Position numbers and translations under genes: made by a program. The notes beneath the pieces are model-generated. The model saw only the letters and a list, made by a program, of their open reading frames with translations. It was not told where the DNA came from and did not search any database. Of a stretch of DNA of 64,000 nt, positions 36,513 through 39,121 are shown piece by piece. This stretch comes from Eledone cirrhosa. Lineage: Eukaryota. The stretch spans positions 133,610,001-133,674,000 of the forward strand of contig OZ024742.1 in NCBI GenBank assembly GCA_964016885.1, given 5' to 3'. How positions within the stretch are numbered: position 1 is the first letter of the stretch; every line of letters starts with the position of its first letter.

Positions 36513-36603
<91 letters not shown>

Positions 36604-36633
36604 ATCAAAAGATGGTTAAAGGAGTTCAATATA

Positions 36634-36700
36634 TTTTATTATGCGCATTTCAAAAACAAACATCATCAAACAATAATATTTGTGTTTTCATCAGATAAAA
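36634..36700 (-). ncRNA. Type I hammerhead ribozyme, left arm
   Basis: ttttat-CTGATGA-aaacacaaa.../tttgttttt-GAAA-TGCGCA-TA-ataaaa. Confidence 0.88.
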
Positions 36701-37869
36701 CAGGAGAACATGATATGAAGGCTAAAAAAACACTTGTTGATAGTGCAGTTTTAAATCAACATATGAAAAGTGGTTTTAGATTGATGTGTGATATTGGGAA
36801 AAATATTTTATTTAGAGAGGGGGGGGAGAGAAAAGGATGAAAAGGGAAGGAGATGAGAGGGAGAGATGGGTGATAGAGAGAAAGAGATAGTTTTTATAAC
36901 TGAGAGGAGATATATTTTATATAGAGGGGTTGAAAACCGTTGGAAGATACTGTATAAATTAAAAATTTTGAAAATTAACGAAGGGAGGATATGTGCGAGG
37001 AAAAAATATATTATATTTAGGGAGGGGGGGGGGGGGGTTGGAAAGGATGAAAACAAGGGGAGGAGATGAGAGTGAAGGTGGAAAGGGAGAGATGGGTGAT
37101 AGAGAGAAAGAGATAGTTTTTATAACTGAGAAAAAGATATAATGTTTTAATATAGAGAGGTTGGGAACCGTTGGAAGATAATGTATAAATTAAAGGAATT
37201 TGAAAATTAACGAAGGGAAATTATGTATGAAGATAGAGAGAAAAAAATAATAATTGTGGGTGAATATTCTAACGTCAAAAGAAGAAATGTAGGAATTTTA
37301 AAATTAGCAAAGAGAAAAAGTTTATGTGTAGAAGGATTTGAGAAAAATAATGTGAAGTTAAAGTTTGTATATTGAATTCATATGTATTAATAATGAGTTC
37401 GTTGATGGGGAGAAAAAAATAATAATAAATTAAGGATGAAATTGAGATTAAAAAGATTTATGATAGAGAGAAAAAATAATAATGATTGCGGATGAATACT
37501 CAAAATGTCAAAAACAAATGTTATTGTTTTACGAGGAGATAGAATGAGGGTAATGAGTAAACGAGTATTATAGAGTGTATAATGCCCTTTAAAGTAAGGT
37601 AGATGGGTATATTTTAAAGAATATATGAGTATATATTAAAAAAAATATAATAATAAATTAAGGATGAAATTGAGATTAAAAATGTCAAAAACAAATGTTA
37701 TTGTTTTACGAGAAGATAGAATGAGGGTAATGAGGTAAACGAGTATTATAGAGTGTATAATGCCCTTTAAAGTAAGGTAGATGGGTATATTTTAAAGAGG
37801 TGTATGTATATGTGCCTTTGAGAAAAGATTCTAAATTGATAAAGAATTGAATATTAACTGTATACTTTG

Positions 37870-38100
37870 TGAAAAGTTCTATGGAATTTATGCAGGCAGA
37901 TAGAAAACAAATCTGAGCGTCTATTTATTATGGATTCTAGGTTAGAGATAATGGTAAATTTTTCATTTAGGCAGAGATTACAGATTTTAGATAGAGAGCT
38001 GTTCAAGTATGAGGATGCAGAAGAAATCTTTTTCCAAAAGATGTTATATTAATGTTTTGTCTTTTAAGGACCATATGAGTTCTGAGAGAGCAGTGTTAGT
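37870..38100 (-). pseudogene. C-terminal fragment of a PLE GIY-YIG endonuclease
   Basis: TALSELIWSLKDK..(frameshift)..YNIFWKKISSASSYLNSSLSKICNLCLNEKFTIISNLESIINRRSDLFSICLH. Confidence 0.8.
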
Positions 38101-38928
38101 TCTTTTAAGTTAGTGTTAGTTCTTTTAAGTTTGTATTTGAAAGATGAATGATGATTATTTTTTCTCTCTATCATAAATCTTTTTAATCTCAATTTCATCC
38201 TTAATTTATTATTATTTTTTTCTCCCCATCAACGAACTCATTATTAATACATATGAATTCAATATACAAACTTTAACTTCACATTATTTTTCTCAAATCC
38301 TTCTACACATAAACTTTTTCTCTTTGCTAATTTTAAAATTCCTACATTTCTTCTTTTGACGTTAGAATATTCACCCACAATTATTATTTTTTTCTCTCTA
38401 TCTTCATACATAATTTCCCTTCGTTAATTTTCAAATTCCTTTAATTTATACATTATCTTCCAACGGTTCCCAACCTCTCTATATTAAAACATTATATCTT
38501 TTTCTCAGTTATAAAAACTATCTCTTTCTCTCTATCACCCATCTCTCCCTTTCCACCTTCACTCTCATCTCCTCCCCTTTTTTTCATCCTTTCCAACCCC
38601 GCCCTCCCTAAATATAATATATTTTTTCCTCGCACATATCCTCCCTTCGTTAATTTTCAAAATTTTTAATTTATACAGTATCTTCCAACGGTTTTCAACC
38701 CCTCTATATAAAATATATCTCCTCTCAGTTATAAAAACTATCTCTTTCTCTCTATCACCCATCTCTCCCTCTCATCTCCTTCCCTTTTCATCCTTTTCTC
38801 CCCCCCCCCCTCTCTAAATAAAATATTTTTCCCAATATCACACATCAATCTAAAACCACTTTTCATATGTTGATTTAAAACTGCACTATCAACAAGTGTT
38901 TTTTTAGCCTTCATATCATGTTCTCCTG

Positions 38929-38995
38929 TTTTATCTGATGAAAACACAAATATTATTGTTTGATGATGTTTGTTTTTGAAATGCGCATAATAAAA
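38929..38995 (+). ncRNA. Type I hammerhead ribozyme, right arm
   Basis: Same sequence as 36634-36700 on the opposite strand; core intact, AUA cleavage site. Confidence 0.88.
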
Positions 38996-39121
38996 TATAT
39001 TGAACTCCTTTAACCATCTTTTGATCTTATATTATGCATACTCCAGTCCCACAAACTGTAGAGTGCTTCTTATCCGATATCTGCATTGCTTTATTGTACT
39101 ACAATAAAACTCACCTCCTAC

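Follow-up and report, generated by a model that had tools for sequence, protein, structure and literature searches.

An inverted insertion between two TA runs

The window, by which we mean the whole stretch of 64,000 nucleotides analysed here, contains a palindrome whose inverted arms (36597-37487 and 38147-39032) are 98.7% identical over 892 alignment columns. Trimmed to the true junction, the arms become 36597-37480 and 38154-39032, about 880 bp each, and are separated by three substitutions and two indels, all of them within or beside runs of G or A. The near-identical arms of the original prediction are thus real, and so is the concentration of their differences in homopolymer runs. The predicted extent, 36598..39030, holds for the palindrome itself but stops short of the end of the element. 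The right arm bears the element's own 88-nt tail, and the whole insertion therefore covers 36597-39123, sandwiched by two (TA)n runs. In the sense of the element, the left arm and the loop lie on the minus strand and the right arm on the plus strand, with both 3' ends facing outward. The parts are given below; reference positions are those of locus L040, and P0001 is a family protein of 800 aa.

36515..36602, no strand: left (TA)n target microsatellite, its right edge merging with the short 3' end of the element
36597..38158, minus: longer arm, a 5'-truncated copy with the short end and no tail (aligns to L040 reference 2180-3790)
36632..36702, minus: mirror hammerhead motif, predicted cut after 36640
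37481..38153, minus: unpaired loop, endonuclease end and upstream 3' UTR, covered by the longer arm only
37502-37620 and 37679-37798, no strand: two direct repeats of about 120 nt in the 3' UTR
37854..38158, minus: GIY-YIG C-terminal remnant with CxxC and CxH, matching residues about 707-800 of P0001
38154..38158, no strand: head-to-head junction, a 5-nt overlap common to both arms
38154..39123, plus: shorter arm, an inverted 3'-end copy with the long end and the tail (L040 reference 2899-3881)
38927..38997, plus: type I hammerhead motif, predicted cut after 38989
39036..39123, plus: 88-nt tail, at this end only; in tandem copies it runs into the next ORF
39124..39220, no strand: right (TA)n target microsatellite

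The longer arm holds the C-terminus of the endonuclease, the whole 3' UTR and a hammerhead, and the shorter arm holds 3' UTR and hammerhead and finishes at the long start site. A 34-mer across the junction occurs once in the genome. The stretch 39033-39123 was also considered as host DNA, a reading rejected on the evidence of tandem copies: junctions in L040 and other loci identify the 88 nt as element sequence. No target-site duplication is readable, the flanks being pure (TA)n. As a single strand, the tail folds no better than its shuffles. Near its end lies a perfect hairpin (39089-39109, TTTATTGT-ACT-ACAATAAA), not significant against shuffles.

The loop was predicted to encode the C-terminus of a GIY-YIG endonuclease, and it does: 38158-37854 on the minus strand matches residues 707-800 of an intact family protein at E 1e-32, though a 20-nt duplication (38112-38131) and single-nucleotide deletions near 38058 and 38050 disrupt the frame. 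Lacking an RT and with its endonuclease end disrupted, the window copy was, we infer, dead on arrival. The internal duplication noticed earlier is present, but it was not made here. Most sister copies also have the duplication of about 120 nt, and an event of this locus was rejected in favour of a family trait.

The hammerhead motif of each arm reads outward. It is made up of an 8-bp helix I, the core CUGAUGA, a helix II of 15 pairs in 16, GAAA, the self-complementary AUGCGCAU and A17. Rfam returned no hammerhead match at the gathering score or at E<=10, and only microRNA models on the TA runs; the fold of the hammerhead alone is no better than that of shuffles (z -0.4 to -1.0). The call therefore depends on the motif and on the published Hydra layout, and in that sense the hammerhead foreseen on each strand is found, on the plus strand and as its mirror on the minus strand. 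Judged by its letters, the element carries the canonical pLTR hammerhead layout of the PMC8557442 supplement, as far as that supplement was available. Helix III has no loop, so that a dimer is predicted to be necessary for cleavage; according to the accessible part of PMC4209133, hammerheads with such a helix III are poorly active and act as dimers. The two hammerheads are probably passengers of the duplicated pLTR.

Similar debris is found elsewhere in the window. A second and older head-to-head insertion (48178-49359) has Hydra-type GIY-YIG remnants on both strands, 33% identical to P0001, and a hammerhead motif at 48079 adjoins it. Three head-to-head stubs of other families (41872-42290, 46438-46880 and 47030-47460) carry a hammerhead core on both strands and one-end extensions, one each, and sit between TA runs. 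Decayed inverted repeats occur at 57582-60633, 6754-8755, 56371-57004, 3895-5737 and 31175-33150, several with hammerhead-like cores, and a 292-codon frame at 4263-5138 has no Pfam match. The left flank of the palindrome (36205-36514) is likewise bounded by TA runs and is a fragment in its own right; its hammerhead-like motif lies on the minus strand and has its core at 36471.

A young family of Penelope-like elements

The palindrome is almost certainly an insertion of a young Penelope-like element (PLE) of the Hydra clade, as its motifs and its many relatives in the genome indicate. With the loop as query, 1,474 candidates were found in the 3.0-Gb genome, the best of them 97-99% identical, and an RT stretch taken from one such candidate is present in 40 copies at 100% identity over 400 bp. 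Exact matches number 1,632 for a 44-mer, 10,009 for a 25-mer of the short end and 12,743 for a 25-mer of the tail; reversed-pattern controls for the exact end patterns gave none. Intact frames (20 ORFs of 820-821 codons) are spread over 18 of 40 fetched loci, a fraction that does not stand for a genome-wide rate, since 35 of the 40 were picked by RT identity. The three arm substitutions, the identical RT copies and the intact frames elsewhere all bear out the predicted recency of the insertion. In this family the ATG follows the hammerhead cut site at a distance of about 200 nt, and TA-rich runs, as expected of a (TA)n target, border both ends of all 35 head-to-head pairs listed. A non-LTR retrozyme was considered and rejected, given the origin from a coding element and the lack of tandem monomers at the locus.

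The protein P0001 has the RT motifs QFDI, MGA and YRDD, followed in the same single ORF by the C-terminal series LIY..YFG..R..H. The accessible text of Craig et al. (2021; PMC8557442) gives as marks of the Hydra clade DKT, RWK, a CxCX5C linker, an endonuclease without CCHH, a hammerhead and (TA)n insertion. P0001 reads DKT for DKG (HSDKTNN), its linker is CNCRIKNKC (CxCx5C), and its endonuclease is without CCHH, having one C between LIY and YFG. CxxC and CxH lie around the E and the N (CNLCLNEK...NRR...CLH), as they do in the window remnant. The N-terminal RWK position reads RLRWT, with RW kept and K not; RWK is found in 10 of 12 homologues, and RWE and RIK variants are seen among the aligned set. 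Database relatives of P0001 are 21 unnamed proteins, 28-38% identical, and the 12 that were aligned share the Hydra-clade motifs. Pfam and PDB searches with P0001 gave no match, and the Pfam GIY-YIG model matched one of the 13 aligned proteins, a homologue, at E 0.0012. Before the linker, P0001 has an N/T/P-rich insert of about 70 aa (residues about 575-650, in L040) that is absent from the 12 aligned relatives and is reminiscent of the N-rich inserts in Penelope elements of rotifers.

Of 23 public runs listed, those with a small share of the query words were left aside. Two runs under other organism labels (X5 and X6) contain about half of the words, so that a near-identical family exists in those organisms. 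X5 has 40 matching bases of the endonuclease end.

Two 3' ends and the origin of the palindrome

Copies of the element finish at one of two fixed 3' ends, short and long, 88 nt apart. Head-to-head pairs were collected from the window and from loci L002-L060, with L001 dropped as the window's own copy; this set favours long copies. Among its 35 pairs, 33 combine a short with a long end, two have two short ends and none has two long ends; the same loci hold 22 tandem junctions. A position-ordered sample of 27 pairs (69 of 100 listed matches, those inside the span of the tail list) behaves alike: exactly one tail is present in 24, two tails in none, and three are without an exact tail match. If the ends were independent, the probability of finding none with two tails in this sample would be 0.003. 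More than 1.1 kb is spanned by 11 of these 27 pairs.

The two arms of an insertion are also alike in sequence. Median divergence is 2 substitutions per 800 nt within an insertion (from the 20 of 35 pairs that are long enough) vs. 12 between insertions (1,358 pairs), and polymorphic calls agree between the arms of one insertion in 660 of 665 cases, vs. 54% between insertions. Length follows no such order, the tailed arm being the longer in 16 of 33 pairs and the shorter in 17. At 31 joins the arms overlap by 1-5 nt (15 cases), meet bluntly (1) or enclose 1-29 unassigned bases (15). Some arms comprise only 37-130 nt of the tail region, and single short-end copies without an inverted arm were seen at 6 of 27 loci inspected. 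Extrapolation from the 10,009 short-end matches suggests thousands of inverted insertions in the genome. The palindromic shape thus probably occurs thousands of times, and the window locus would not be special.

Several further observations concern the same set. Mini-palindromes of about 320 bp make up 26 of 40 head-to-head pairs among the first 100 listed 44-mer matches (e.g., L061, L069, L073, L080 and L088). Where such copies were opened, most had a CATATG at the centre, about 163 nt upstream of the short end, and their joins varied slightly. In L035 and L087 one arm only ends at the CATATG site and its partner is not its mirror, which hints at a fixed 5' end of the RNA or a fixed RT stop. 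Private changes in 34 insertions, read on the sense strand, are unclustered and include more T>C (26) than A>G (11); the T>C excess may come from RT misreading of U. L047 (354-9349) is a perfect fold-back of 9 kb whose arms are equal, whose ends are both short and whose flanks mirror each other; it is either an artefact of the assembly or a palindrome of secondary origin.

We prefer the view, at a probability of about 0.7, that the insertion consists of two 5'-truncated 3' ends set head to head in (TA)n, with both cut ends of the target priming on one RNA. The GIY-YIG domain would nick both strands of (TA)n, the two 3'-OH ends would begin copying the same RNA, one from the short site and one from the long, and the two cDNAs would stop after about 1,560 and 970 nt. 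They would then be joined through the 5-nt overlap, acting as microhomology, and filled in. The accessible portion of the work on a Poseidon PLE (PMC11167929) reports that it cuts and extends both strands in vitro, using two start sites that bound the tail. Neither window arm appears to be a plain copy of the other, since the longer is without the tail and the tailed one stops about 700 nt earlier; such mutual non-containment is seen in 17 of 33 pairs. The single short-end copies imply that the short site starts copies by itself, and together with the arms of 37-130 nt they favour the step in which both target ends prime reverse transcription on one RNA, a step that we consider likely in its own right. 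Even odds may be given to a stricter version, in which the family is still jumping and a protein dimer holds one RNA and assigns the target ends to the short and long sites, making double priming obligatory and palindromes the normal product. If double priming were obligatory, it would explain the PLE tail and the inverted pLTR in one step and would seed thousands of ready dsRNA templates in the genome.

Priming by both target ends has points against it. Sharing of haplotypes between arms speaks for one donor, not for one RNA molecule, and fits conversion between arms. Perfect or near-perfect centres are common (the mini-palindromes; L058, L019) and also suit an origin by fold-back of the cDNA, and the window tail is 88 nt long, not the 30-40 nt described. 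The two start sites of the Poseidon PLE, moreover, neither favoured a strand in vitro nor had homology to the DNA that was cut. In the fold-back account, a single priming event takes place at the long site, the cDNA folds back, is copied as far as the TA-rich short site and joins the other target end, and a later off-centre deletion turns the perfect hairpin into arms and loop; the accessible text of PMC3846280 proposes a variant with self-priming on an antisense template. We think such an origin rather improbable, even though it directly explains why there is one tail and why the arms are identical, and even though many perfect hairpins are centred on the self-complementary CATATG. Its deletion by microhomology also fits the 15 joins, among 31, at which the arms overlap by 1-5 nt. 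It needs, however, a second event at most long insertions (in L021 a 3.8-kb arm would have had to shrink to 37 nt), it leaves the untailed single short-end copies to be accounted for, and in L035 and L087 the non-mirrored partner of the CATATG arm points instead to a fixed stop. That the palindrome is no more than an assembly or library fold-back has a minimal probability in our estimate. The arm differences do lie in homopolymers and resemble read errors, and the junction is unbridged among the contigs listed from four public runs. These contigs (runs X1-X4 on 37800-38450; X1, X2, X3 and X5 on 38080-38200) contain family pieces at high depth and, among those listed (18 of 37 pieces), none that spans the junction; the runs contain at best 0.61-0.63 of the words and so are probably not from the assembled individual, and a gap in such contigs is no proof of absence. 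Several features speak against an artefact: the tail is one-sided, the two flanks do not mirror each other, the loop between the arms is unique, and this asymmetric layout is repeated at 33 of 35 loci in one set and at 24 of 27 in the other. The full fold-back L047 differs on just these points, with its equal arms, like ends and mirrored flanks. A fold-back artefact of the window copy is therefore unlikely.

The original prediction further held that transcription of the locus would give a long dsRNA hairpin with a ribozyme near its 3' end, a candidate for editing by ADAR or for processing to small RNAs; in a functional reading of this idea the ribozyme would trim that end. Such a fate is compatible with the insertion described above, but that this locus meets it in a way that matters is very doubtful. 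In its favour are the 880-bp duplex of the arms, predicted to be very stable (-1481 kcal/mol), ADAR editing of repeat duplexes, which is general in animals (PMC5625713, accessible part), and the possibility that the pLTR of each arm holds a promoter, as described for rotifer elements in the available text of PMC3846280, though it would fire outwards. The variants speak otherwise: of the 158 private variants seen across 34 insertions, 11 are A>G, at most three per insertion and none in the window copy. With no A>G excess and no clustering, these variants show no fixed A>G footprint. In the hairpin, moreover, the hammerhead is predicted to pair with its antisense (-104 vs. -10 kcal/mol), and its cleavage is expected to require a dimer; from its sequence it is a standard pLTR hammerhead, not an addition to a hairpin. 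The Pfam scan took in 46 of the 119 longer open frames of the window and recognised no domain, which leaves room for a host gene with short exons or a long intron. A sigma-70 scan found nothing, sigma-70 being irrelevant to an animal. Transcription of even a few long palindromes would enlarge the pool of editable dsRNA, a matter for the family rather than the locus.

Comparison with known systems

The nearest known systems are the C-terminal EN+ PLEs of the Hydra clade (Craig et al., 2021; PMC8557442), e.g., Hydra-1_Obim and Penelope-13_HM. To the extent that the published text was available, the window family shares with them the single RT-linker-GIY-YIG frame, DKT, CxCx5C, CxxC and CxH, the absence of CCHH, the hammerhead and the (TA)n target. 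P0001 is colinear, in a comparison by eye, with the part of Hydra-1_Obim that is printed there, and Penelope-13_HM resembles the window insertion in having an inverted copy truncated at its 5' end (nt 1-966) and a hammerhead on each strand. Differences from the accessible descriptions are a unit of about 3.9 kb (published units are mostly <3 kb) with a repeat-rich 3' UTR of 1.3 kb, RWT for RWK, the insert before the linker, the 88-nt tail, and a long helix II with an A-U closing pair. The window family also has >10,000 ends and many intact frames. It appears to add another member to the Hydra clade, one whose unit and tail are both longer, placed by its motifs and by-eye comparison. Beyond Craig et al., no octopus study of these elements was found in the open-access literature.

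The general design of EN+ PLE insertions is known from the accessible parts of PMC8557442 and PMC3846280: an inverted 5'-truncated copy, a one-sided tail, (TA)n and a hammerhead. The window family has the same outward 3' ends, single tail, partial tandems and microhomology joins. In those texts the tail is optional or often one-sided, whereas here the rule of one tail and the shared template of the arms have been counted over 62 pairs. The available text of PMC8557442 calls the way in which PLEs come to form tandem and inverted insertions an open question, and no statement of a model with paired priming at two sites was found in the open-access literature. One tail per insertion and one template for both arms thus constrain models of the mechanism, and natural intact copies of the family exist on which a mechanism may be tested.

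Among systems studied in vitro, the PAc Poseidon element of the anole (Frangieh et al., 2024; PMC11167929) has, in the portion available, the same arrangement of two start sites bounding a tail downstream of the hammerhead. It belongs to another clade, and its hammerhead overlaps the start of the ORF, whereas in the window family the ATG follows behind the cut site. Both ends of the window family also have TA-like letters that might pair with the target, unlike those of PAc Poseidon.

A parallel exists outside the PLEs as well. In the twin priming of L1, a single RNA is primed by two DNA ends, and the resulting inversion is joined by microhomology. The two halves of such an L1 insertion cover different parts of the RNA, whereas the window arms copy the same 3' region, which yields a palindrome. 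Set beside these systems, the window locus is ordinary transposon debris of a published shape, and the useful part lies in the counts made over its family.
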